DNA of 64,000 nt. Origin: an uncultured Elusimicrobia bacterium (GTDB lineage: Bacteria; Elusimicrobiota; Elusimicrobia; Elusimicrobiales; UBA9959). The stretch spans positions 1,389-65,388 of the forward strand of contig CAISZM010000001.1 in the NCBI GenBank assembly GCA_903889965.1, in the 5' to 3' direction. The notes under the pieces were generated by a model, which did not search any database, was not told the DNA's origin, and worked only from the letters and a program-made list of their open reading frames with translations. Of this stretch, positions 43,269 through 54,416 are shown one piece after another (within the stretch, counting starts at the first letter, position 1; the number at the start of each line of letters is the position of its first letter). The position numbers were made by a program, and so were the translations under genes.

Positions 43269-44033
43269 CTATAACTTACCGGGCGCCCAGTCGTACATGG
43301 CCTCGGCGAAGAAGGCGGCGTGGTCCGAAAGGTCCCTCCACGGGCCCTTGTTCAGCACCTGCGCCTTGAGGATCCTGAACCCGCGCGTATAAATGCGGTC
43401 CAGCGGGAAGACCGGGGTACGGGAGGGGAAGGTGCGGAGTTTGCGGCCGTAAAGCTCGAGGCCTGCGTCCTTCATCAGCAGGCGCGTCTCCAGTTCGTCC
43501 TGCCTGTTCCTGCGCCATTCGTTGAAGTCCCCGGCCACTATGACGGGTTCGGTGTCGGGGACTACCCGGCGTATGTATTCGCAGATCCTGGTGAGCTGCT
43601 TCCCGCGCGAAAAGCTCAGCAGCCCCAAGTGCAGGCAGAAGCAGTGCAGCGGCGGTTTGCCTTCCGGCAGGGCGACGCGGGCGTATAGCATGCCCCTTTT
43701 CTCCACGCGGTTGGTGGAGATGTCCAGTTTTTCGGAATGCAGTATGGGGAAGCGGGAGAGTATGGCGTTGCCGTGATGTCCCGCGGTATAAACGGCGTTC
43801 TTGCAGTAGGCATGGCTGAACCCCGACTTTTCGGTCATGTACTCGTGCTGGGGCGCGGAAGGCCAGCCGAAGCACTTCCCGGCTTTGCGCAGGTTCTGTC
43901 CCACTACTTCCTGCAGGAAAATTATGTCCGCGCCCGTATCGTGCACGCTGTCGCGCAGTTCAGGCAGAACGAAGCGCTTGTTCAGCGCGGAAAAGCCCTT
44001 GTGGACGTTTATCGTAAGCAAGCTGAGTTTCAT
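43269..44033 (-). CDS. Endonuclease/exonuclease/phosphatase (EEP) family protein
   Basis: LLTINVHKGF, DIIFLQEV, VIVAGDFNEW, DLSDHAAF. Confidence 0.8.
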   Translation of the reverse strand: MKLSLLTINVHKGFSALNKRFVLPELRDSVHDTGADIIFLQEVVGQNLRKAGKCFGWPSAPQHEYMTEKSGFSHAYCKNAVYTAGHHGNAILSRFPILHSEKLDISTNRVEKRGMLYARVALPEGKPPLHCFCLHLGLLSFSRGKQLTRICEYIRRVVPDTEPVIVAGDFNEWRRNRQDELETRLLMKDAGLELYGRKLRTFPSRTPVFPLDRIYTRGFRILKAQVLNKGPWRDLSDHAAFFAEAMYDWAPGKL

Positions 44034-44054
44034 GGCCCCCCACGGCTATAATAC

Positions 44055-44087
44055 AAAAAAGCCCGGGTTTTTTGCCCGGGCTTTTTA
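44055..44087 (-). terminator. Rho-independent terminator downstream of ahcY
   Basis: AAAAGCCCGGG / CCCGGGCTTTT stem with a 7-nt loop and T-runs on both strands. Confidence 0.8.
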
Positions 44088-44100
44088 TCGCGCGCGAAGG

Positions 44101-45501
44101 TTAGTAGCGGTAATGGTCCGGCTTATACGGTCCGTCCACTTTTACCCCGATATATTCGGCCTGCTGCGCGGTGAGCTTCGTCAGCCTTACGCCTATCTTC
44201 CCGAGGTGCAGGCGGGCTACTTCCTCGTCCAGCTGCTTGGACAGCCGGTATACGCCCACGGACATCTTCTTGGTCCAGAGCTCTATCTGCGCGAGCGTCT
44301 GGTTTGAGAAGGAATTGCTCATGACGAAGGAGGGATGTCCCTTGGCGCAGCCGAGGTTCACCAGGCGGCCTTCGGCCAGCAGGTATATGGAGCGCCCGTT
44401 GGGAAGGTCGAAGCGGTCGACCTGGGGCTTGATATTTACCATCTTAACGCCCCGGGTCTCCTTAAGCTTCGAGACCTGTATCTCGTTGTCGAAATGGCCG
44501 ATATTGCAGACTATTGCCTGGTCCTTCATCTTCAACACGTGTTCCACGCGTATGATGTCGCGGTTCCCGGTGGTGGTGACGTACACGTCGCCCTCGCCCA
44601 GGGTGTCTTCCACCGTGGCCACTTCGAAGCCTTCCATGGCGGCCTGCAGGGCGCAGATGGGGTCTATCTCGGTGACTATGACGCGGGCGCCGAAGCCGCG
44701 GAGCGAACGTGCCGAGCCCTTGCCCACGTCGCCGTAGCCGCAGACCACGCAGACCTTGCCGGCTATCATCACGTCGGTGGCGCGCTTGATGCCGTCCGCA
44801 AGAGACTCGCGGCAGCCGTAGAGGTTGTCGAATTTTGATTTAGTGACCGAATCGTTCACGTTGATGGCGGGCACCATCAGTTCGCCGGCCTCGTGCATCT
44901 GGTATAGGCGGTGCACGCCGGTGGTGGTCTCCTCGGAAACGCCCCGCCAGTCCTTCACGGCCACGTGCCAGCGTTTCGGGTTTTTCTTAAGTTCAGCTTT
45001 AAGGCAATTGTTCAGTTCCAGTTCGTCCTCGCCGCCGGCCTTGGCGTCGAGGATCTTCGGGTTCTTCTCGGCCGCGAAGCCGCGGTGCATCATCATCGTG
45101 GCGTCGCCGCCGTCGTCCACTATAAGGTTAGGACCCTTGCCGCCGCCGAAGTTGAGCGCGCGGTCGGTACACCACCAGTATTCGGCCAGGGTCTCGCCCT
45201 TCCAGGCGAATACCGGTATGCCGGTCGCCGCTATGGCCGCGGCCGCCTGGTCCTGGGTGGAGAAAATGTTGCAGGAGCACCAGCGCACTTCGGCCCCCAG
45301 AGCCGCCAGGGTCTCTATCAGGACGGCGGTTTGCGTGGTCATGTGGAGGGAGCCCATGACGCGGGCGCCCTTCAGGGGTTTTTTAGCCGAGAACTTTTCG
45401 CGTATGGCCATCAGCCCGGGCATTTCTTTTTCCGCTATCTCTATTTCGCGGCGGCCCCACGCGGCAAGGCTCATGTCTTTTACTCTGTAGTCTGTATTCA
45501 T
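44101..45501 (-). CDS. ahcY: Adenosylhomocysteinase
   Basis: [31 protein letters not shown]..., [16 protein letters not shown], and the NAD-binding [13 protein letters not shown] 45501 follows AAGGAG, although the ORF is open to 45531. Confidence 0.95.
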
Positions 45502-45621
45502 TGTAGGTTTCTCCTTGGTCGCTGCGGGCATATGGCTCCTTTGCGTAAATCCTGTCTAAATTATAACTTTTTCTCCGCTGCGGGGGGAAACCCGAACCCG
45601 GCGGTTTTGTACAATTTAACA

Positions 45622-46323
45622 ATGTTTAAATACAAGCCGGCGCTGGCCCTGGCGGTCTGCGCCCTTTTAAGCGCCCCCGTATTTTCCGCCGACTGGGTAA
45701 TACCCCGCACCACTTACTATATAAGCGCGGAGCAGCAGGAACTGCCCGGCTTCCCGGCCCCTCCCGCCCCGGGTTCCGCGGCGGACCTCAGGGACTTGTC
45801 CGTCTTAAAGAGCTGGCAGTCCAGGCGTACTCCGGAACAGTGCGCGAAAGCGAACGCGGCCGCCAACGCCGGGTTCGAGGATTTTTTCCGGGGCATAAGT
45901 CCTTTCCCGTCTCCGCTCCCGGAGGGAGCCGCGGTCATATTTGCGCGGGTTAAGGCTGAAACCGACGGCGCGGCCGCGGGGATAAAGGAAAGGTTCAAGA
46001 GGGACCGGCCTTTTCTGCGCGACGCGTCCCTTGAGCCCTGCCTTGGCAGGATAGGCGGCCTGTCATATCCCAGCGGCCACGCGGCCATCTCGCGGATGTT
46101 CGCGCTGATGCTGGGGGACCTGGTCCCGGCCCGGAAAAAAGAGTTTCTGGCCCGCGCCGACACCGCGGCGCTTGAAAGGGTTATAGGCGGCGTCCATCAC
46201 CCTTCGGATATCGCCGCTGGGAAAGAACTTGCCGACAGGCTCTACCGCGCTTACCGCGAAAGCCCGGCCTTCCGCGCGGACATGGCGGCTCTGCGGGGCA
46301 TGCTGAAAAAGGACGCGCGGTGA
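45622..46323 (+). CDS. PAP2-family (class A acid phosphatase-like) periplasmic phosphatase
   Basis: Signal peptide MFKYKPALALAVCALLSAPVFSA. PAP2 motifs LSYPSGHAAISRMFAL and RVIGGVHHPSDIAAG. The listed ORF start (44911) is an antisense-of-ahcY extension. Confidence 0.8.
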   Translation: MFKYKPALALAVCALLSAPVFSADWVIPRTTYYISAEQQELPGFPAPPAPGSAADLRDLSVLKSWQSRRTPEQCAKANAAANAGFEDFFRGISPFPSPLPEGAAVIFARVKAETDGAAAGIKERFKRDRPFLRDASLEPCLGRIGGLSYPSGHAAISRMFALMLGDLVPARKKEFLARADTAALERVIGGVHHPSDIAAGKELADRLYRAYRESPAFRADMAALRGMLKKDAR

Positions 46324-47720
46324 AAGACCTCACTACCGGCAACGAGGGACGCCTGCTCTGGGATTTTACGGTTCCCATGCTCATAGGGAACGTCTTCCAG
46401 CAGTCCTACAACCTCGTGGACAGTATAATAGTCGGGCGCGTCATAGGGAAATCCGCGCTTGCCGCGGTAGGGGCCAGCTTTCCCATCATTTTCCTTTTAG
46501 TTTCGCTCATTATCGGCGCCACGATGGGGTTCTCCATACTGATATCGCAGTTCTTCGGAGCCAAAGATACGGGAAGCGTCCGGCGGGCCGTCGATACCGC
46601 CTACGTATTCCTCTTCAGCGCCTCGCTGCTCGCCACCGCGGCCGGGCTGGCGTTCTCCGGGAGCATACTGGCGCTCTTGAACACGCCCGCGGATATTTTC
46701 CCGCAGGCGCTGGTGTTTTTGCGCGTGACCTTCGGCGGGCTCGTTTTCCTCTTCGGCTTCAACTGTGTAAGCGCCGTGCTGCGCGGCCTGGGGGATTCCA
46801 AGACGCCGCTTTACTTCCTGGTATTTTCCACTCTTCTGAATATTTTGCTGGTTATAATCTTCGTCAAGGTGCTGCGCTGGGGCATAGCCGGTTCGGCCTG
46901 GGCCACAGTGGCCGCTCAGGGAGTTTCTTTCCTGCTGGCGGCGGCCTACCTCGACAGGACTAACCCGATGCTGAGGTTCCGGTTCAGGGGGTTCGAATTC
47001 GACCGTGTCATTTTCAGGAAAAGCATGTCTATCGGGCTCCCGTCGGGGGTGCAGCAGATGCTGGTGGCCGCGGGCATGATGGCCTTGACGCGCATAGTCA
47101 ACGGTTTCGGCACGGACGCGGTGGCTGCCTATACCGCCGCCGGGCGCATAGACACTTTCGCGGTGATGCCCGCCATGAACCTTTCCGCCGCGATCTCCAC
47201 TTTCGTAGGTCAGAATATCGGCGCCGGGAAAATGGAGCGCGTGAAAAAAGGCTTTAAAACGGCGCTTTACATCTCGGGGGCCACCTCGCTGCTGACAACG
47301 CTGGCCGTGGTGGTTTTCGGCTGGCGGCTTATCTCGATGTTCAACCCGGACCCGGCGGTGGTGAGCATAGGGGCGCGTTACCTGCTGATAGTAGGCGGCT
47401 TCTACGCGGTTTTTTCCTGCATGTTCGTTATAAACGGAGCTCTGCGCGGGGCAGGCGACGCTTTCGTCCCGATGATAATCACGGTGCTGTCGCTGTGGGT
47501 CATAAGGCTGCCGGTTTCGTCCTTTCTTTCCGGGAGGATAGGTACCGACGGCATCTGGTGGGGCGTGCCTATAGCCTGGTGCGCCGGCCTGGCGCTTGCC
47601 GCCGGCTATTATTCTACGGGGCGCTGGAAGCGGCTGTCGCTGGTGAAACCCCGTGTAGAGCCGGTGGTGCTGCCTCCGTCCGAGGAAGAGGAAGCTGAGT
47701 GGAACGTTTCGGCCTTTTAG
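46320..47720 (+). CDS. MATE-family efflux transporter
   Basis: LWDFTVPMLIGNVFQQSYNLVDSIIVGRVIGKSALAAVG and an ALRGAGDAFVPM repeat-half motif. 466 aa with 12 TM-like segments. Confidence 0.9.
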   Translation: MKDLTTGNEGRLLWDFTVPMLIGNVFQQSYNLVDSIIVGRVIGKSALAAVGASFPIIFLLVSLIIGATMGFSILISQFFGAKDTGSVRRAVDTAYVFLFSASLLATAAGLAFSGSILALLNTPADIFPQALVFLRVTFGGLVFLFGFNCVSAVLRGLGDSKTPLYFLVFSTLLNILLVIIFVKVLRWGIAGSAWATVAAQGVSFLLAAAYLDRTNPMLRFRFRGFEFDRVIFRKSMSIGLPSGVQQMLVAAGMMALTRIVNGFGTDAVAAYTAAGRIDTFAVMPAMNLSAAISTFVGQNIGAGKMERVKKGFKTALYISGATSLLTTLAVVVFGWRLISMFNPDPAVVSIGARYLLIVGGFYAVFSCMFVINGALRGAGDAFVPMIITVLSLWVIRLPVSSFLSGRIGTDGIWWGVPIAWCAGLALAAGYYSTGRWKRLSLVKPRVEPVVLPPSEEEEAEWNVSAF

Positions 47721-47728
47721 GAGGGTTT

Positions 47729-48088
47729 GTGGGCGACAATGACAGGCTTGTGTATTCGAGCGGTCCCGACGGAAAAGTGAGCTGCCCCAACTGCGGGCGC
47801 ACGCCCTGCGTCTGCCCTGGAGGGCTTGCCGGCGAGCTCCGCCGGAGGACCCAGACCGAACCTGTGCGCGTTTCTTTCAGGAGAACGGGCAAGGGCAGCG
47901 GCCTTACGCTGGTTGAAAGGCTTCCCATGCACCCGGCGGGCAAGGAAGAACTGCTGAAAAAATTCAAGGTGCGGCTGGGCACCGGCGGTACCGTGAAGCA
48001 GGGCGTTCTTGAGATACAGGGGGACCGCAGGGATCTTATAAAAGCCGAGCTTGAGGCCGCCGGGTATAAGGTGAGGCTGATAGGCTGA
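47729..48088 (+). CDS. yciH: SUI1/eIF1-family translation initiation factor-like protein (YciH)
   Basis: VRVSFRRTGKGSGLTLVERL...KVRLGTGGTVKQGVLEIQGDRRDLIKAELEAAGYKVRLIG. GTG 47729 follows AGGAGG. An alternative GTG lies at 47699. Confidence 0.8.
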   Translation: MGDNDRLVYSSGPDGKVSCPNCGRTPCVCPGGLAGELRRRTQTEPVRVSFRRTGKGSGLTLVERLPMHPAGKEELLKKFKVRLGTGGTVKQGVLEIQGDRRDLIKAELEAAGYKVRLIG

Positions 48089-48092
48089 CGCG

Positions 48093-49868
48093 TCAGGAAG
48101 CCCGCCAGTACCATTCTATCTGCACCGGGCTAGGCGCGCCGTCCTTCGCCGCCGCCCCGCCCTTTTCCTGATCAATGCGCGGCAGTATGTCGCGCAGTTT
48201 CCAGCAGCCGTCCTCCCTGCCGAAAACCCAGTATTCCGTGAAAGGCGCGGGCGCCTCGTCGCGGTGCAGCAGTTTCCCGTTGCGCCGCATGGCGCGCAGC
48301 GCCGTAGCAGTGAGCCTGGCGGTGAATTCGTCCGGGCCCGTTTTATCCTTTCCTGACGGGTTGGTCAGTACTATCTCCGCCCTGCGCGTGAAAAGACCGG
48401 CGAATTCGAAAGAGAAACCATCGGTCCGCCGTTCCTGCATTATATTTTTAAGCCTGGCCATGGTTTCGGCCGAAGCGAAATCCGCGCTAAGGATGGAACT
48501 GTCGTTCCTGCCCCAGGCTTCGTAGACGTTCTCAAAAGCCAGGGTGGCGGCTATCTCCATCCTTTGCCTGTCCCAGATATCGCCGTCCCGGGCCGCAGCC
48601 GTTTTCTCCGGGGCGGGAGGCTCGGCCGGCATGGGCGAAGAAGCGCCTGCAGCCGCCGCGGCCAGCGGTACGGCGGCGGCTGGAGAATAAGTCGGAAAAA
48701 CAGCCCGGGATACGGCGGGGGAGATAAAGGCATCCTGTGGTTCTTCCGGCAGATTCGAGGAATTCAGAAAGTCTAATTCTCCGGCTTGGTCTATACGCGC
48801 AAGCGCCCAGCGGTCGTTAAAGCGATAGAAGGTCCAGAATTCCTGGAAGGGGGCGGGCTCAGTGTCGCCGCGCAAGCGGGTATGGGTATTTGCGTCAACT
48901 GTGTAATCCAGCGCGGAGGCCGTGATAAGGACGGTAAAAGAGCGGCCTTCTTTTTGGGCGGGACAACGCACCTGCACGAAATCTATCTCTATTACCCGGA
49001 CATCCTCCATCATGTTTATCTCGCCGCGCGCCCTTATGGCCTCTACCTTGTCGCAATGTTCGGCGTAGAGATCCGGCATCATGTCGCCGCGGAGCGTGCT
49101 GTAGTCGCGCGCCTGCCACGCGATCTGCGCGCGGAGGAAAATATCTTTTACGCGCTCTTCAATGGCGTCCGGGTTGAGATCCGGGTCGCGGCCCGAAAGG
49201 CTCTGCATGATCGCGCGCGTTTTTTTATCCCTGGCTGCAAAGATGTCCCTGCGCAGGACAATGCCCTGGCCGCCGTTGTAGTCTTCGGTGTTATTGGGCT
49301 GGCGGAACAGCTCCCTCAGTACCGTTATTGCGATAAGGATCAAATAGAAAAGAGAGTTGCCCCGTCCGCCGCCCTTATTGTGGACGATAAAACCGCCGGC
49401 TATAAAAGTGTGCGGGGGGGTTACTTCAAGGTTGTAAACTTCGCTCAGTCCGCCGGTCTTTATGGACAATATCTTCGTCCACACGCAGCGTCCCCCGGCC
49501 AGGAAGGCCGCTTGCATTTCAACCGTCAGATCTCGGGCTTCCACGAAGCCGTCCCGCGTAAGAAGGGGGTGTTCGGCCGTAGTGGTCAGGCTGCCTTTCC
49601 CGGTAATGACGACCAGCAGCCGGTCGGTCTTTTTGTGGGTTCTTTTTACATCGGCCTGGACCAATCGCCCGCCGGAAAAAGCGAATACCCTGTCTCCGGC
49701 CTTTACCTTCTCTATGGGCACGTCGCCCGCCGCGGTCGCAATAAGAGTGCCGGCCGGGAAGCAGCCCCCGCCTCCCCCGCCACCCCCGCCTCCTCCGCCG
49801 CCCCCGGCCCTGGACCAGGCGGGCGCCGACGGCGCGAGCAGGATAGCCGCGATCAGCAGGTATTTCAT
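48093..49868 (-). CDS. Signal peptide - Gly14 - Hint (bacterial intein-like) domain - TM - two Tim44-like domains (591 aa)
   Basis: MKYLLIAAILLAPSAPAWS, then 14 Gly, then CFPAGTLIATAAG...TTTAEHP...VYNLEV..HTFIAGGFIVHN-KGGG. A TM helix LFYLILIAITVL follows, then ...AWQARDY...FQEFWTFYRFNDRWALARIDQ and ...AWGRNDS...FTEYWVFGREDGCWKLRDILP. Confidence 0.7.
   Translation of the reverse strand: MKYLLIAAILLAPSAPAWSRAGGGGGGGGGGGGGGCFPAGTLIATAAGDVPIEKVKAGDRVFAFSGGRLVQADVKRTHKKTDRLLVVITGKGSLTTTAEHPLLTRDGFVEARDLTVEMQAAFLAGGRCVWTKILSIKTGGLSEVYNLEVTPPHTFIAGGFIVHNKGGGRGNSLFYLILIAITVLRELFRQPNNTEDYNGGQGIVLRRDIFAARDKKTRAIMQSLSGRDPDLNPDAIEERVKDIFLRAQIAWQARDYSTLRGDMMPDLYAEHCDKVEAIRARGEINMMEDVRVIEIDFVQVRCPAQKEGRSFTVLITASALDYTVDANTHTRLRGDTEPAPFQEFWTFYRFNDRWALARIDQAGELDFLNSSNLPEEPQDAFISPAVSRAVFPTYSPAAAVPLAAAAAGASSPMPAEPPAPEKTAAARDGDIWDRQRMEIAATLAFENVYEAWGRNDSSILSADFASAETMARLKNIMQERRTDGFSFEFAGLFTRRAEIVLTNPSGKDKTGPDEFTARLTATALRAMRRNGKLLHRDEAPAPFTEYWVFGREDGCWKLRDILPRIDQEKGGAAAKDGAPSPVQIEWYWRAS
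49377..49763 (-). other. Hint/intein-like autoprocessing module (aa 36-164 of the CDS)
   Basis: It starts with Cys (TGC, 49761-49763) and ends with His-Asn (49377-49382). The +1 residue is Lys, so canonical splicing chemistry is absent. Confidence 0.6.
49764..49805 (-). repeat. 42-nt run of 14 consecutive Gly codons (C/G-only low-complexity tract)
   Basis: The plus strand reads CCCCCGCCTCCCCCGCCACCCCCGCCTCCTCCGCCGCCCCC, lying between the Cys codon and the Ala-Arg-Ser-Trp end of the signal peptide. Confidence 0.9.
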
Positions 49869-50137
49869 CAGCGCAGGGCCGCTAAGACCCCGGCGAGTAC
49901 GGCGGCCGCGATTATTATGCTGACGCCCAGTATGGCGGCCGACACTATGCGCCCGAAATAGTCGCCCACGGCCCGGTTGCCGCGTATTATTTCCTTGCCT
50001 TCGTCTATGTTCGGGGTCAGTTTATTGAGGAGCGCGGGTATGCGCGATGAGAACCAGATGAGCAGGAAACCGCCCGCGGCGCCTCCGACCAGCGCGAAGA
50101 CCAGCGCCCAAGTGATGTTTGCCAGCGTTTCGTACAT
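49868..50137 (-). CDS. DUF350-family small membrane protein (89 aa)
   Basis: ITWALVFALVGGAAGGFLLIWF...LTPNIDEGKEIIRGNRAVGDYFGRIVSAAILGVSIIIAAAV matches my memory of DUF350. Its stop overlaps the downstream ATG (ATGA). Confidence 0.6.
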   Translation of the reverse strand: MYETLANITWALVFALVGGAAGGFLLIWFSSRIPALLNKLTPNIDEGKEIIRGNRAVGDYFGRIVSAAILGVSIIIAAAVLAGVLAALR

Positions 50138-50147
50138 AAGCCTCCGT

Positions 50148-50181
50148 GACCGTAAAAGCGTAGTCTATATTTTTTACGGTC
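50148..50181 (-). promoter_or_regulatory. Perfect 10-bp inverted repeat GACCGTAAAA-N14-TTTTACGGTC abutting the DUF350 ribosome-binding site
   Basis: Read directly. On the minus strand the 3' arm is followed by ACGGAGGCTT-ATG (start 50137). Confidence 0.35.
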
Positions 50182-50402
50182 CAAAGTCATCCCTGCCGGT
50201 GAAAATGCGCTTGCGGCCGGTTATTTTTAAATAAAGCCCTCTTCCCTCGGGGCGTCCCGGGAGAGGTAAAAAGGTGCCCCGCGGCGTTTAAAATGCTAAA
50301 ATATAAGTCCGGCAGTTCCGGTTGGCCTGGTTTTCCCGTTTTACAGTTCCCGGCAAATTTTACTGCTACAGTTCACAGACCCGCACTGCGGGAACAGCTT
50401 CT

Positions 50403-52217
50403 ATGATAACGCTAAGGAACGTCTCCAAATCTTTCGGTTCGCAGGTCCTCTTCGAGGACGCCTCCCTGCAGATAAACGAGGGCGAGCGCTTCGCGCTGGT
50501 CGGGCCCAACGGCTCCGGCAAGTCCACTCTTTTCAAGATGATGCTGCGCGCCGAGGAGGCGGACGAGGGCGAGATACAGTTCAAGAAGGGCGTGGTGGTG
50601 GGGTACCTGCCGCAGGAGAACGCCCCCATCGAGGAAGGCACCGTGGTGGAGGTGACCTTGGACGGCGTGGAGGATTACGACGGCCGTATAGAGGCTGAAG
50701 CCAAAGCCATACTGATGGGGCTGGGTTTTAAAGTCACGGATTTCACGCGCAGGGTGAACACCCTGAGCGGCGGCTGGGCGATGCGCGTGGCGATGGCGAA
50801 GCTCCTGATCAAGAAGCCCGACCTGCTCCTGCTCGACGAGCCCACCAACCACCTGGACCTGGACTCGCTGCTGTGGCTGCAGCAGTACCTGGCCGGCTAC
50901 CAGGGCGCCATTTTCGTTATCTCCCACGACCGCGCCTTCGTCAACACCGTCTGCAACGCCATAGTTTCCGTGCAGGAAAAAAACCTCCGGGTCTATTACG
51001 GGGACTACGAGAATTTCCTCGCGCAGCGCGAATCCGAGAAGGAAAAGATATATTCGGCCTGGCGCCTCCAGCAGGAACAGGTAGACCAGATGAAGGATTT
51101 TATCGCCCGCAACAGGGCGCGGGTATCCACGGCTTCCCGCGTGCAGAGCATGATAAAGCGCCTGGACAAGCTGGAACTCATAGAGCTGCCGGCCGAGGTG
51201 AAGACGGTGAAGATCCGCTTCCCGCAGCCCGGCCGTACCGGCACCAAGGTGCTGGAGCTTAAGGACGTAAGCAAGATCTACGAGGTTCCCGGCCACGAGC
51301 CTATAAAGGTCTACGAGAATTTCAACTTCGAGCTGCAGCGCGGCCAGAAGATGGCCTTCGTCGGCCACAACGGCGCCGGGAAATCCACGCTTTTAAAAAT
51401 GCTGGCGGGCGTGATAGAGCCGGATTCCGGCGAGCGCGTGCTGGGGCTGAACGTGAAGACCGGCTATTTCTCCCAGCACCGCGAGGGCATACTGGACCCG
51501 CGCAAGACCGTCCTGCAGGAAGCCATGGACAATGACCGGATGAACCCGGAGCTGGTGGTGCGTACCGTGCTCGGAACCTTCCTGTTCCCGGGCGACAACG
51601 TTTTCAAGAAGACCGCCGTGCTCTCCGGCGGCGAGAAGAGCCGCCTGATGCTGGTGAAGCTGCTCATGGACCCGCCCAACGTCATACTTATGGACGAGCC
51701 CACCACGCACCTGGATATGGCTAGCGTGGACGCGCTTATAGGAGCCCTGAAGGAATTCGAAGGCACCCTCTGCTTCATCAGCCACGACATTTATTTTATA
51801 AACGCCCTGGCCGATTCCGTGGTGCACATCGAACAGGGCAAGACCACCGTCTACCCCGGCAACTACGACTATTTCCGCTACCGCCAGGACCAGATACAGG
51901 CAGCGGACGCCGCGCACCAGAAAAATAATCCGCCGGCTCAGGCCGCGCCGGCCCCGTCAACTGACTGGGAGGCTAAAAAGCGCCTGGAAGCCGAAGGCAG
52001 GAAAAAAGTGCGCCGCGTGGAAACGCTGCACAAGGAAATAGCCTATTCCCGCAAGACGGTGGAAACCCTGGCGGCCAAAATGTCCTCGCCCGAAATTTAC
52101 TCGGATTACAGGCAGGTGAAGGAACTCGGCGACAAGATACACGCCCTGGAAGCCAAGATCTCCGCGTACACCGAGGAGCTGAAGACGCTGGAGAGCGCAA
52201 ACGTAACCGCGCAATAG
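50403..52217 (+). CDS. ABC-F family ATPase (two ABC domains, no TM; Uup/YheS/EttA-like)
   Basis: LVGPNGSGKSTLFK / LSGGWAMRVAMAKLL and FVGHNGAGKSTLLK / LSGGEKSRLMLVKLL, with a C-terminal coiled coil. I prefer ATG 50403 (MITLRNVSKSF) over TTG 50322. Confidence 0.9.
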   Translation: MITLRNVSKSFGSQVLFEDASLQINEGERFALVGPNGSGKSTLFKMMLRAEEADEGEIQFKKGVVVGYLPQENAPIEEGTVVEVTLDGVEDYDGRIEAEAKAILMGLGFKVTDFTRRVNTLSGGWAMRVAMAKLLIKKPDLLLLDEPTNHLDLDSLLWLQQYLAGYQGAIFVISHDRAFVNTVCNAIVSVQEKNLRVYYGDYENFLAQRESEKEKIYSAWRLQQEQVDQMKDFIARNRARVSTASRVQSMIKRLDKLELIELPAEVKTVKIRFPQPGRTGTKVLELKDVSKIYEVPGHEPIKVYENFNFELQRGQKMAFVGHNGAGKSTLLKMLAGVIEPDSGERVLGLNVKTGYFSQHREGILDPRKTVLQEAMDNDRMNPELVVRTVLGTFLFPGDNVFKKTAVLSGGEKSRLMLVKLLMDPPNVILMDEPTTHLDMASVDALIGALKEFEGTLCFISHDIYFINALADSVVHIEQGKTTVYPGNYDYFRYRQDQIQAADAAHQKNNPPAQAAPAPSTDWEAKKRLEAEGRKKVRRVETLHKEIAYSRKTVETLAAKMSSPEIYSDYRQVKELGDKIHALEAKISAYTEELKTLESANVTAQ

Positions 52218-52296
52218 AAATTGGGGTGAGGCGGTTGCCACGGGGACCAGAGCGCAAAAACAGTCGCAGACGGGGGCTTTGTTTCGCACACCGTGC

Positions 52297-52520
52297 TCAC
52301 CCTTCCCCGTCTCAGGCTCGTCGCTTACGCAAGCCTCGCCTTCCGACAGGGTTTTGCTAACCCGGTCCCCGCGGCAGCCGCAGGGAAAGTGGTTTTGGGG
52401 CGGCGAGGGTATGGGTTCGGAGGGCCCTCACGGAGGCCGACGCTTGCGTAAGCGCGGAGGCCGAGTGGGGAGGGCGGCCACGGTGTGGCCGACCCGGTGC
52501 CCGACGGGCCCATACCCTCG
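52297..52520. repeat. Nested/interleaved inverted repeats in the 360-bp ABC-F/typA intergenic region
   Basis: Arm A (~52297-52346, core CGCTTACGCAAGC 52322-52334) is complementary to arm A' (~52430-52478, core GCTTGCGTAAGCG 52442-52454). B, CGAGGGTATGGG (52404-52415), is complementary to B', CCCATACCCTCG (52509-52520). There is also a small hairpin GGCCAC-GGT-GTGGCC (52476-52490). Confidence 0.6.
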
Positions 52521-52577
52521 GCGACCCCCGCTTGGCCGGCGTGGACATTAGAGGATTTTAAGGAGCAACAACAAAAC

Positions 52578-54416
52578 ATGCAACATGACACAGCAAAGCG
52601 CCGGCACGACCTGCGCAACATAGCCATCATCGCCCACGTCGACCACGGCAAAACCACGCTTCTCGACGCCATGCTCAAGCAGACCGGCGCCTTCCACGAC
52701 AAAAGCGGCGAGGAAGCCATCTGCATCATGGACTCCAACGACCTCGAAAGGGAGCGCGGCATCACCATTCTCTCCAAGAACACCTCCGTGCGCTACGGCG
52801 ACACCACCATACACATCGTTGACACCCCCGGCCACGCCGACTTCGGCAGCGAGGTTGAGCGCGTGCTCAGGATGGTGGACGGGGTACTGCTCCTGGTCGA
52901 CGCCCTCGACGGCCCCATGCCGCAGACCCGCTTCGTCCTCAAAAAATCCCTCGCGCTGGGCCTGAGGCCTATCGTCGTGGTGAACAAGATAGACCGTCCC
53001 AACTGCGACCCGCACGCCACGCTCGACAAGATCTTCGCCCTCTTCATGGAGCTTGGCGCCACCGACGCGCAGCTGGATTTCCCGACCATATACGCCGTGG
53101 GCCGCGACGGCTGGGCGACGCACGACTTCAAGGTGAAGACGAACGACCTTAAGCCGCTTTTCGAGACCATCATAAAGCACGTCCCGGGGCCCCTGGACCT
53201 CGACGACCAGCCGCTCAGGCTGCTGGTGACCATGCTGGACTACAGCTCTTACACCGGGCGCATAGGCGTGGGCCGCATCGTGCAGGGCAAAATAACTTCC
53301 GGCCAGCAGGTCTCCATGGGTTCCCCAACCTCCCAGCCGGTCACGCGCAAGGTGACACAGCTGCTCGGCTACAAGGGCATGGAGAGGGTAGTGATAAAGG
53401 AAGCCCGCTCCGGCGACATCGTGGCCATATCGGGACTTGAAGGCGTGGAGGTCGGCGATACCATTTCGGACGCGGAAAACCCGGGAATGCTGCCGGGGCT
53501 GGAGATAGAGCAGCCCACGGTCTCGATGGAATTCTTCGCCAACGACGGCCCCTTCTCGGGGCGCGAGGGCAAATTCGTGACCGCCACGCAGCTGCGCGAC
53601 CGGCTTTACCGCGAGCAGCAGATCAACGTGGGGCTTAAAGTCGAGGAGATACCCGGACAGAGCGGCTTCAAGGTTTCCGGCCGCGGGGAACTGCACCTCG
53701 CCATACTTATCGAGACCATGCGGCGCGAGGGCTTCGAGCTATGCGTCTCCAAGATGGTCGTGATAACCCACCTGGAGAACGGCGTAAGCGTCGAGCCGGT
53801 GGAACTCCTGATGCTGGACTCCCCGGCGGAGTTCCAGGGCGCGGTGATGAACGGCCTGGGCGCGCGCGGCGCGCAGCTTAAGAACATGACGATCGGCGAG
53901 GATGGCCGCGTAAGGTTCGAGTATGTCATTTCCTCGCGGGCGCTTATCGGTTTTAAATCGGAATTCCTGACCTTTACCAAGGGTTCGGGCCTGATGCACC
54001 ACAGTTTCCACGGCTTTCTCCCGGAAGGCGGCTTCAACCGCCCGAACCGGAACGGGGTATTTATAGCCAAGGAATCCGGCAAGTCAGCCGGCTACGCCCT
54101 CAACGGACTGCAGGACCACGGCATAATGTTCATCGGAGCCGGCGAGGATGTTTACCTGGGCCAGATAGTAGGCGAACATTGCCGCGCCAACGACCTTGTC
54201 ACCAACCCGTGCAAGGAAAAGAAGCAGACCAATATGCGTTCCTCCACCTCCGACATGTCCATAGTCCTGACCCCTCACCGCCAGATGAGCCTGGAGCAGG
54301 CCATAGAGTACGTCGAGGAAGACGAGTTCGTGGAAGTGACGCCGAAGAGCCTGCGCCTGCGCAAGAAGGTGCTGGACCACAGCCTGCGCAAGCGCGGCGA
54401 AAAGGTTGACGATTAA
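52578..54416 (+). CDS. typA: Translational GTPase TypA/BipA
   Basis: [42 protein letters not shown], plus the BipA-type C-terminal domain. ATG 52578 follows AAGGAG. Confidence 0.95.

Follow-up and report, generated by a model that had tools for sequence, protein, structure and literature searches.

In the 64,000-nucleotide stretch of contig CAISZM010000001.1 from an uncultured Elusimicrobia bacterium, here called the window, we analyzed an open reading frame (ORF) of 591 amino acids (48093..49868, minus strand; supported by the ORF list, Pfam, homologues and structure prediction) that combines a Hint domain with two Tim44-like domains and lies directly downstream of a gene for a small DUF350-type membrane protein. 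We propose that the two genes specify a two-gene inner-membrane unit, in which a half-size DUF350 protein with two transmembrane helices would be co-translated with a type-I membrane protein bearing a cytoplasmic pair of Tim44/NTF2-like domains, and in which a bacterial intein-like (BIL) Hint cassette of type A would be carried on a short Gly-rich exported tail. The Hint junctions of this protein family follow an almost invariant rule, with glycine or serine before the catalytic cysteine (Cys1) and lysine directly after the terminal His-Asn (position +1). We hypothesize that the Hint cassette excises itself and that its flanks are ligated with the lysine as acyl acceptor. Judged from sequence comparison, this full excision-plus-ligation reading has an even chance of being correct.

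Hint domain and predicted exported N-terminus

From its N-terminus, the 591-amino acid protein consists of a signal peptide, Arg-Ala-Gly14, the Hint domain (BIL-A), a lysine, a Gly-rich linker, a transmembrane helix, Tim44-like domain 1, an Ala/Pro-rich linker, Tim44-like domain 2 and a C-terminal helix. The N-terminal part reads MKYLLIAAILLAPSAPAWS-RA-G14-C36FPAGT...TTTAEH100P...GGFIVH163N164-K165GGGRGNS, followed by the transmembrane segment. An initial annotation of the window had already described the signal peptide, the Gly14 run, Cys36 and a Hint module of 129 amino acids with TTTAEHP and a terminal His-Asn, and both the sequence and Pfam agree with this description.

The Hint domain spans residues 36–164 (49377..49763, minus strand) and was delimited by Pfam, the PDB match, the AlphaFold2 (AF2) model and Foldseek. 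It possesses Cys36 (codon 49763-49761), the block-B residues Thr97-x-x-His100 and His163-Asn164; an endonuclease insert is absent. Two Pfam models scored above their cut-offs, PT-HINT with 34.7 bits (cut-off 27.7) and Hint_2 with 29.9 bits (cut-off 28.4), and the best PDB sequence match was 2lwy (3.3e-10). The AF2 model of the whole protein has a mean predicted local distance difference test (pLDDT) value of 82.9. Means of 10-residue blocks are 91–98 over residues 41–160, and the block 31–40 has a mean of 80 because of the Gly run. Structure prediction followed by a Foldseek search against the PDB bore out the expected fold, with target-normalised template modelling scores (TM-scores) of 0.74–0.90 for the ten best matches, among them DnaB and other mini-inteins, the Clostridium thermocellum BIL (2lwy) and Tetrahymena BUBL1 BIL2 (6y75). 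The presence of Cys1 and His-Asn and the lack of Cys, Ser or Thr at +1 had been taken as BIL-like, and Cys36, His163-Asn164 and Lys165 together with the 2lwy match are consistent with this view. By sequence definition, the window Hint is a type-A BIL, and we consider it likely that it is catalytically active. Within the family it is of the last-position type (CFPAGT...).

Residues 1–19 (MKYLLIAAILLAPSAPAWS; 49812..49868, minus strand) represent a Sec-type signal peptide with an n-region Lys, a hydrophobic core and a small-x-small c-region, and AF2 places a helix at residues 2–14. The pattern A-x-A/G/S followed by R is recurrent throughout the Hint/Tim44 family, and signal peptidase I presumably cuts before Arg20. 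The segment that would be left in front of the Hint, Arg20-Ala21-Gly22..Gly35 (49764..49811, minus strand), is the N-extein and, from its sequence and the family motif, the predicted acyl donor. Due to the mixed codons of the Gly14 run (GGG/GGC/GGA/GGT), a slippage artefact was rejected and the run is conserved as an amino-acid sequence. In Elusimicrobia the N-extein after the signal peptide is Arg-Ala-Gly(5-15), and in 87 surveyed proteins it is exactly Arg-Gly4. We also rejected a lipoprotein reading of Gly-Gly-Gly-Cys, because Arg and 4–15 Gly lie between the hydrophobic core and the Cys and because Cys-less variants have a plain Ala-x-Ala site. On the other side of the Hint, Lys165 (49374..49376, minus strand), which is followed by GGG, is the +1 residue and, from the conservation of the junction in the family, the predicted acyl acceptor.

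The predicted transmembrane helix comprises residues 172–188 (SLFYLILIAITVLRELF; 49305..49355, minus strand), where an AF2 helix covers the same residues and a hydrophobic segment is aligned in all homologues. It probably serves as a stop-transfer anchor with the C-terminal part in the cytoplasm. The initial annotation had called a topology with an outer Hint and inner Tim44-like domains odd; however, a cleavable signal peptide, an exported Hint, one transmembrane helix and cytoplasmic Tim44 domains would make up an ordinary type-I arrangement.

Conservation of the junctions and Hint-less orthologues

The junctions were surveyed in 394 Hint copies of the family, 384 of them with Cys1, and in a second set of 151 copies from further representatives. 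The junction of a Gly run with Cys, noticed beforehand in the window protein, proved to be part of a family-wide rule, as 383 of the 384 Cys1-bearing copies have the form Gly/Ser-Cys...His-Asn-Lys. The sole exception, with Met at +1, occurs in L022, where the gene is broken by a frameshift. In the second set 150 of 151 copies follow the rule, the deviating cases being a truncated fragment and a single Ser1 copy in which Lys+1 is nevertheless present. Arg was never found at +1 among the Cys1-bearing copies of the family. The catalytic columns of these copies are similarly constant (block-B Thr 99%, His 100%), and the terminal His-Asn is present in all 394 copies.

Such conservation bears on the idea that the domain is an inactive, structural Hint of the periplasm or a PT-HINT of a polymorphic toxin. 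This idea is in keeping with PT-HINT as the best Pfam Hint model and with the database names of relatives, which are generic ("TIM44-like domain-containing", "polymorphic toxin-type HINT"). However, catalytic residues conserved to 99–100%, the lack of a toxin domain after the Hint, of an immunity-like gene and of a polymorphic C-terminus, and the position in a syntenic, housekeeping-like locus without PADLOC matches make it extremely unlikely. A defence or toxin system was rejected as well, given the PADLOC result and the absence of toxin and immunity genes nearby. A link to sortases, raised by a Pfam Sortase score of 26.4 bits (cut-off 26.6) in P0070, was discarded as spurious, since no stretch was significant and the match lies inside a Hint.

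Ten Hint copies are devoid of Cys1, and in a neighbor-joining tree of the Tim44 part they fall at about three separate places. In all ten the Arg-Ala-Gly(n) N-extein is gone and the signal peptide abuts the Hint, Lys+1 is replaced by Tyr or Arg, and the block-B His and the terminal His-Asn are retained; the block-B Thr is lost in eight. This pattern of co-loss indicates that Lys+1 goes with the residues for thioester formation and not with those for the cyclization of Asn. Because Lys+1 is never replaced by Arg where Cys1 is present, charge alone offers no explanation for its conservation, and the strict occurrence of Lys, never of Arg or a small residue, hints at a role of the side chain. Lys165 had initially been treated as the mere lack of a nucleophile. 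While Cys, Ser or Thr is indeed absent at +1, the Lys is nearly invariant and disappears along with Cys1, the N-extein and the block-B Thr, so this part of the description falls short.

Within the one-Hint clade of the same tree, the Hint was lost at least three times; one of the resulting Hint-less proteins, P0062, has exactly the synteny of the window. These orthologues retain the signal peptide and Arg-Ala-Gly(n). The Hint-bearing P0023 and the Hint-less P0058 are 75% identical over the C-terminal part, and their tails are collinear except for [Cys...His-Asn]-Lys-Gly-Gly-Gly. Thus, the predicted spliced product would resemble a Hint-less orthologue.

Proposed reaction and hydrolytic cleavage as its main rival

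We propose the following sequence of events. After Sec export and removal of the signal peptide before Arg20, the Hint would fold in the periplasm, where an N-S acyl shift at Cys36 would generate a Gly35~S-Cys36 thioester. Cyclization of Asn164 would then cut the His-Asn-Lys165 bond, and an amine of Lys165, either the freed alpha-amine or the epsilon-amine, would attack the Gly thioester. As the outcome, Arg-Ala-Gly14 would be re-joined to Lys-Gly-Gly-Gly...TM-Tim44 (TM, transmembrane helix) and a free Hint of 129 amino acids would be released. The mature protein would be like the Hint-less orthologues, and most relatives outside Elusimicrobia would repeat the chemistry through 2–5 tandem Hints, most often 3–4.

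The main rival explanation is that cleavage takes place and the flanks stay unjoined: hydrolysis of the thioester at Gly35-Cys36, cyclization of Asn164 or both would shed the oligoglycine and the Hint and leave a new Lys-Gly-Gly-Gly N-terminus on the Tim44 protein. Every catalytic residue that cleavage requires is present, and reviews report that BILs mainly yield N- and C-cleavage products. In addition, the Cys1-less variants keep His-Asn, so that C-terminal cleavage alone is apparently useful. However, cleavage without ligation leaves three observations unexplained, namely the presence of Lys at +1 and the lack of Arg, Gly and Ala there among more than 530 copies, the joint disappearance of Lys+1 and Cys1, and the fixed Arg-Gly4 or Arg-Ala-Gly(n) of an N-extein that would be discarded although Hint-less orthologues have it in common. 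We regard cleavage alone as possible but on the unlikely side. The initial annotation had expected cleavage rather than splicing; in our comparison, the invariance and co-loss of Lys+1 together with the syntenic Hint-less orthologues would favor ligation, i.e. splicing by aminolysis, over shedding.

Several points weigh against excision plus ligation. Type-A BILs in publications give mostly cleavage products. In some tandem-Hint relatives that do not belong to the family the +1 residue is Arg, as would be expected if its role were electrostatic and not nucleophilic. Cys1, the N-extein and Lys+1 were lost together in only about three independent events, and the Arg-Gly(n) N-extein could be conserved simply because signal peptidase and the −1 site require it. 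Finally, ancient, position-specific arrays of 3–4 Hints that are easily lost and yet kept are poorly explained by a purely self-removing passenger.

Distribution of the family and tandem Hint arrays

A protein search returned at least 212 relatives, and a full HMMER search against 1.84 billion cluster representatives returned 445 representatives of 50%-identity clusters at E<=1e-30, so that chance is ruled out as the origin of the architecture. In species-representative genomes we found 183 stretches encoding it. The hosts belong to Elusimicrobia, Verrucomicrobiota, Lentisphaerae, Kiritimatiellaeota, Planctomycetota, Syntrophales, Desulfarculales and other deltaproteobacteria, Nitrospirota, Myxococcota and Gammaproteobacteria. 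DUF350 neighbors with a Hint plus Tim44 architecture, which the initial annotation had suggested looking for in other genomes, thus occur as a gene pair in at least nine phylum-level groups, and Legionella massiliensis LegA, with a three-Hint orthologue (locus L050), is a cultured host. No NCBIfam model fits the Hint/Tim44 architecture. We found no paper that combines a Hint or intein with Tim44 or that describes the whole architecture, and literature searches for DUF350 with Tim44 and for DUF350 with LemA gave unrelated matches only, as judged by titles and abstracts; searches on Tim44-like proteins of bacteria yielded no pertinent paper. The earlier impression that no described system matches the module is therefore sustained. 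A metagenome contig of 1815 bp from the Joint Genome Institute (JGI) encodes P0001, a protein of 483 amino acids with 100% identity to residues 109–591 of the window protein; due to this identity, the same or a near-identical organism must have been sampled elsewhere.

The number of Hints per protein is 0, 1, 2, 3, 4 or 5 in an otherwise constant architecture. Elusimicrobia mostly have one Hint and some have none; in most other phyla 3–4 Hints stand in tandem, 2–6 residues apart. Tandem Hints are only 30–34% identical within one protein, and a copy at a given position most resembles its positional counterparts in other phyla. From this the array must be ancient, and a recent selfish duplication of Hints was rejected on the same grounds. 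The single window Hint is such an array in reduced form, the usual size being 3–4 tandem Hints. Since 3–4 distinct Hints with intact active sites were kept across phyla despite repeated losses in Elusimicrobia, the arrays probably do something useful, be it regulated maturation, sensing or the supply of free Hints or peptides.

The segments between Hints consist only of Lys-Gly(1-5); among 85 arrays of three or four Hints, 80 have exactly Lys-Gly between the first and the second Hint. Together with the fixed length of the Arg-Gly4 N-extein in the 87 proteins mentioned above, such uniform linkers could point to a small-peptide factory, in which the array releases Arg-Gly4, Lys-Gly and Lys-Gly3 and in which a Lys-Gly thioester with a free alpha-amine could cyclize to a diketopiperazine. 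However, this is based on chemical reasoning alone, and single-Hint forms, that of the window included, have no downstream Hint to free the Lys, yet their Lys+1 is invariant. We consider such a factory very improbable.

Tandem BILs with Gly at −1 also recall the layout of BUBL proteins, and the junction Gly-Gly-Cys-Phe is the same as the cleavage motif of Hedgehog proteins. In the manner of both systems, the Gly~Cys thioester could be attacked by an outside acceptor, for which amines of lipids or peptidoglycan or a Lys of another envelope protein are conceivable; the oligoglycine or, in tandem forms, upstream Hint units would become attached to it. According to PMC8616854, BUBL BIL2 puts a ubiquitin-like domain ending in Gly onto lysines of other proteins. 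However, the family has no cargo domain, as the short inter-Hint segments show, and no sterol- or adduct-recognition region after the Hint. The invariant His-Asn would be needless for such a transfer, and a conserved candidate for an acceptor gene was not found near related loci. Transfer to an outside acceptor is thus quite improbable.

A further variant would assign the side chain of Lys+1 the role of the nucleophile. Each periplasmic Hint would then splice the upstream Gly acyl group onto the epsilon-amine of Lys as an isopeptide, and tandem arrays would act as an ATP-free acyl relay that builds a branched oligoglycine/lysine N-terminus on the Tim44-like protein or hands this structure on to other envelope amines. 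We hold this relay to be unlikely.

The arrays are able to grow by duplication of units, as seen in P0110 with the order H1-H2-H1-H2 and in P0122, whose five Hints include near-identical recent repeats. P0127 and P0150 have at least 4 Hints and an extra segment of about 250 amino acids between the last Hint and the transmembrane helix, which is Cys-rich in P0127. At L022:5920-7635 and L086:5313-7930 the Hint-Tim44 gene is split into 2–3 ORFs, which reflects either frameshifts of the assembly or a pseudogene. There are also tandem-Hint proteins without Tim44 whose junctions are His-Asn-Lys or His-Asn-Arg (P0218, P0250, P0225, P0236 and P0243). P0218 combines 8 Hints with a Pro-rich tail, P0250 contains 4 Hints, HN-KCC and HN-RCC junctions and a collagen-like Gly/Pro tail, P0236 has a prepilin-like N-terminus, and P0243 follows a subtilase with PKD domains.

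Tim44-like domains and C-terminal helix

The remainder of the initial domain assignment, one transmembrane helix and two Tim44-like domains next to the Hint, is confirmed by the AF2 helix 172–188 and by Pfam, where Tim44 (PF04280), like the two Hint models, exceeded its cut-off (83.8 bits, cut-off 29.6, E=1.8e-23, two stretches). AF2 shows two alpha/beta domains at residues ~207–361 and 434–562. The first, Tim44-like (NTF2-like) domain 1 (48786..49250, minus strand), includes the best Pfam Tim44 stretch at residues 221–360 and has AF2 blocks mostly above 90. The second, Tim44-like domain 2 (residues ~434–562; 48183..48569, minus strand), corresponds to the second Pfam stretch and is modelled with helices and strands, most blocks being above 90 (range 74–97). 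No PDB sequence relatives of the Tim44 part were found. In NCBIfam, both TimA NF033778 (15.6 bits, cut-off 200) and the Tim44/TimA adaptor NF033779 (36.2 bits, cut-off 80) stayed below their cut-offs.

The protein ends with a conserved helix of the motif DGAPSPVQIEWYW (48096..48128, minus strand; AF2 helix 581–590), in which the columns D576, Q583, W586 and Y587 are nearly invariant. The C-terminal motif DGAPSPxQIEWYW (residues 581–591) is nearly invariant between phyla, and the helix could be a membrane-interface or partner-binding element.

DUF350-type partner, LemA and the locus

The upstream gene encodes a half-size DUF350/YjfL-like membrane protein of 89 amino acids with two transmembrane helices (49868..50137, minus strand; ORF list, Pfam PF03994 and orthologues) and is preceded by a GGAGG Shine-Dalgarno-like sequence (50141..50145, minus strand), which was read from the sequence. 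Against Pfam DUF350 the protein itself reached 21.3 bits (cut-off 26), with one half of the 133-position model aligned. Among its orthologues 25 of 33 match PF03994 at E<=0.01, one of which (L003) lies above the cut-off with 30.8 bits. These matches are in line with the initial assignment as a DUF350-type protein, and the partner would be classed as a half-size DUF350 with two transmembrane helices. It has a conserved loop TPNIDEGKEIIRGNRAVGDYFGR and the motif TPNIDExKEIxRGNxAVAxYFGR and is 45–79% identical between phyla, a conservation far above that of the Tim44 protein. At least 2366 clusters at 90% identity were found.

The DUF350-type gene is situated immediately 5' of the Hint/Tim44 gene in nearly all loci with upstream DNA; conversely, for three DUF350-type members on long contigs the Hint-Tim44 gene is the next gene in 3/3. 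In about 22 deltaproteobacterial loci a LemA gene (PF04011, E=5e-46; for example L041:549-1199(+), L086:4217-4810, L087:4405-4959 and L088:4405-4959) is found directly 5' of the DUF350 gene and completes a three-gene unit of LemA, DUF350 and Hint-Tim44. LemA is absent at the window locus, and no other conserved neighbors of the module were found among the related loci. Our guess is that the DUF350/Tim44 core, which LemA often joins as a third partner, has a function connected with lipids or membranes.

In the window, the DUF350 gene ends and the Hint-Tim44 gene begins within TGATG, where stop and start codon have 1 nucleotide in common (base 49868); the overlap is not ATGA, the one given in the initial annotation. 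Via this overlap the DUF350 gene is translationally coupled to the downstream gene. The spacing in relatives ranges from a short overlap up to about 145 nucleotides, which fits co-expression from a single operon, with direct translational coupling only where the genes abut. A scan for promoters and terminators gave no signal over background.

The neighborhood of the module in the window (43269-54416) comprises genes of the exo/endonuclease-phosphatase family, AdoHcy hydrolase, PAP2, MatE, SUI1, the module itself, ABC-F and BipA/TypA. Metagenome-assembled genomes of Elusimicrobiales are syntenic with the window, with BipA, ABC-F, DUF350, Hint-Tim44, SUI1, MatE, PAP2 and AdoHcy hydrolase, which shows the phylum of origin of the window to be that of the Elusimicrobia. 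The locus is housekeeping-like. No further Hint domains were found within the 64 kb. Two antisense ORFs, 48786-49961(+) with 391 amino acids and 49462-49923(+) with 153 amino acids, were rejected as genes and are by-products of high G+C; the latter has a poly-Pro run opposite the Gly14 codons. Similar antisense ORFs are also present over related loci.

Significance

BILs are known from variable secreted proteins, in which their function is hard to pin down. Here, a BIL-like domain occupies a fixed site in a conserved single-copy membrane protein of many phyla. The family contains its own natural controls in the Hint-less variants, the Cys1-less variants and the forms with 1–5 Hints, and with Legionella massiliensis as a cultured host the question of function is directly testable. 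If the Gly-Cys...His-Asn-Lys rule is a true sign of Lys-mediated ligation, it would extend protein-splicing chemistry past Cys, Ser and Thr, and ligation tools for Gly-Lys junctions that are usable outside the cytoplasm might become possible. The isopeptide relay, if true, would be a bacterial extracytoplasmic counterpart of ciliate BUBL conjugation without E1 or E2 and a new class of protein splicing defined by Lys at +1. A rule of Lys or Arg at +1 may define a wider BIL subgroup beyond the Tim44 family. Independent of the Hint chemistry, our analysis brings to attention a very conserved and abundant membrane module of DUF350 and a Tim44-like protein, partly with LemA.

Comparison with known systems

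The C-terminal part of the window protein resembles the Tim44 C-terminal domain family (PF04280; COG4395; bacterial TimA-type proteins) in its two Pfam Tim44 stretches and its weak NF033779 match. In contrast to that family, it has a duplicated domain, an extra conserved C-terminal QIEWYW helix, a DUF350 partner and an exported, Hint-bearing N-terminus. Most orthologues of its partner (25 of 33) match PF03994, the model of DUF350/YjfL proteins (UPF0719; YjfL is the family name in some sources). However, with 89 amino acids and two transmembrane helices the partner has half the length of the Pfam model, and its subfamily is conserved very tightly and occurs in specific pairing with the Hint/Tim44 gene.

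Among Hint proteins, polymorphic-toxin PT-HINT proteins differ from the window protein, in which a transmembrane helix and two Tim44-like domains follow the Hint and the neighbors are housekeeping genes. It does not belong to the PT-HINT toxins, as its Hint is not followed by a toxin domain. The Hog domain of Hedgehog proteins is alike in its Gly-Cys-Phe scissile motif and in the thioester at Gly, which is predicted for the window Hint, and 6tyy was among the Foldseek matches. Because the window Hint ends with His-Asn and is devoid of a sterol-recognition region, it is not a Hog domain; moreover, its N-terminal part is a peptide of 5–16 residues and not a signalling domain.

Class 1 mini-inteins (for instance Npu/Ssp DnaB; PDB 4o1r and 1mi8) are the best structural matches, with target-normalised TM-scores up to 0.88–0.90, and orthologous host genes with and without the element are found in both cases, as occupied and empty sites. 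Due to the absence of a +1 Cys, Ser or Thr, the window Hint is not a class 1 intein. It also contains no homing endonuclease, is inserted into a low-complexity Gly tail instead of a conserved active site, and is exported, whereas class 1 inteins are cytoplasmic.

Tetrahymena thermophila BUBL1 BIL2 (PDB 6y75/6tmm; Chiarini 2021), for which PMC8616854 describes a Lys(epsilon)-C-terminus isopeptide, is similar in the arrangement of BILs in series (2–5 Hints in the relatives of the window protein), in Gly at −1 and in a lysine amine as acceptor, reported for BUBL1 BIL2 and predicted here; its Foldseek E-value is ~2e-9. However, BUBL proteins are eukaryotic and cytoplasmic and carry ubiquitin-like cargo between the BILs, whereas the spacers here are Lys-Gly(n), the reaction would take place in the periplasm of bacteria and Lys itself occupies position +1.

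The closest relationship exists to type-A BILs (Amitai 2003; Dassa 2004; 2lwy, Aranko 2013), with which the window Hint shares the compact endonuclease-free fold, Cys1, block-B TxxH, the terminal His-Asn and the lack of a +1 Cys, Ser or Thr. According to PMC4031507 and PMC7664689, these domains form an N-terminal thioester and undergo C-terminal cleavage by Asn cyclization; cleavage is the dominant outcome, but splicing is possible through attack of the freed amine on the thioester. The ligation we propose, an attack of an amine on the thioester after Asn cyclization, is thus the mechanism proposed for them. BILs have been described from hypervariable regions of non-conserved bacterial proteins (PMC7765530). 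In contrast to such hypervariable, non-conserved secreted hosts, a conserved host protein with a constant insertion point and partner gene recurs here in at least nine phylum-level groups. The window Hint is a member of the Hint superfamily; the fixed site in a conserved protein, the ancient position-specific tandem arrays and the invariant Lys+1, with the junction fixed as Gly-Cys...His-Asn-Lys-Gly, set it apart from the described BILs.

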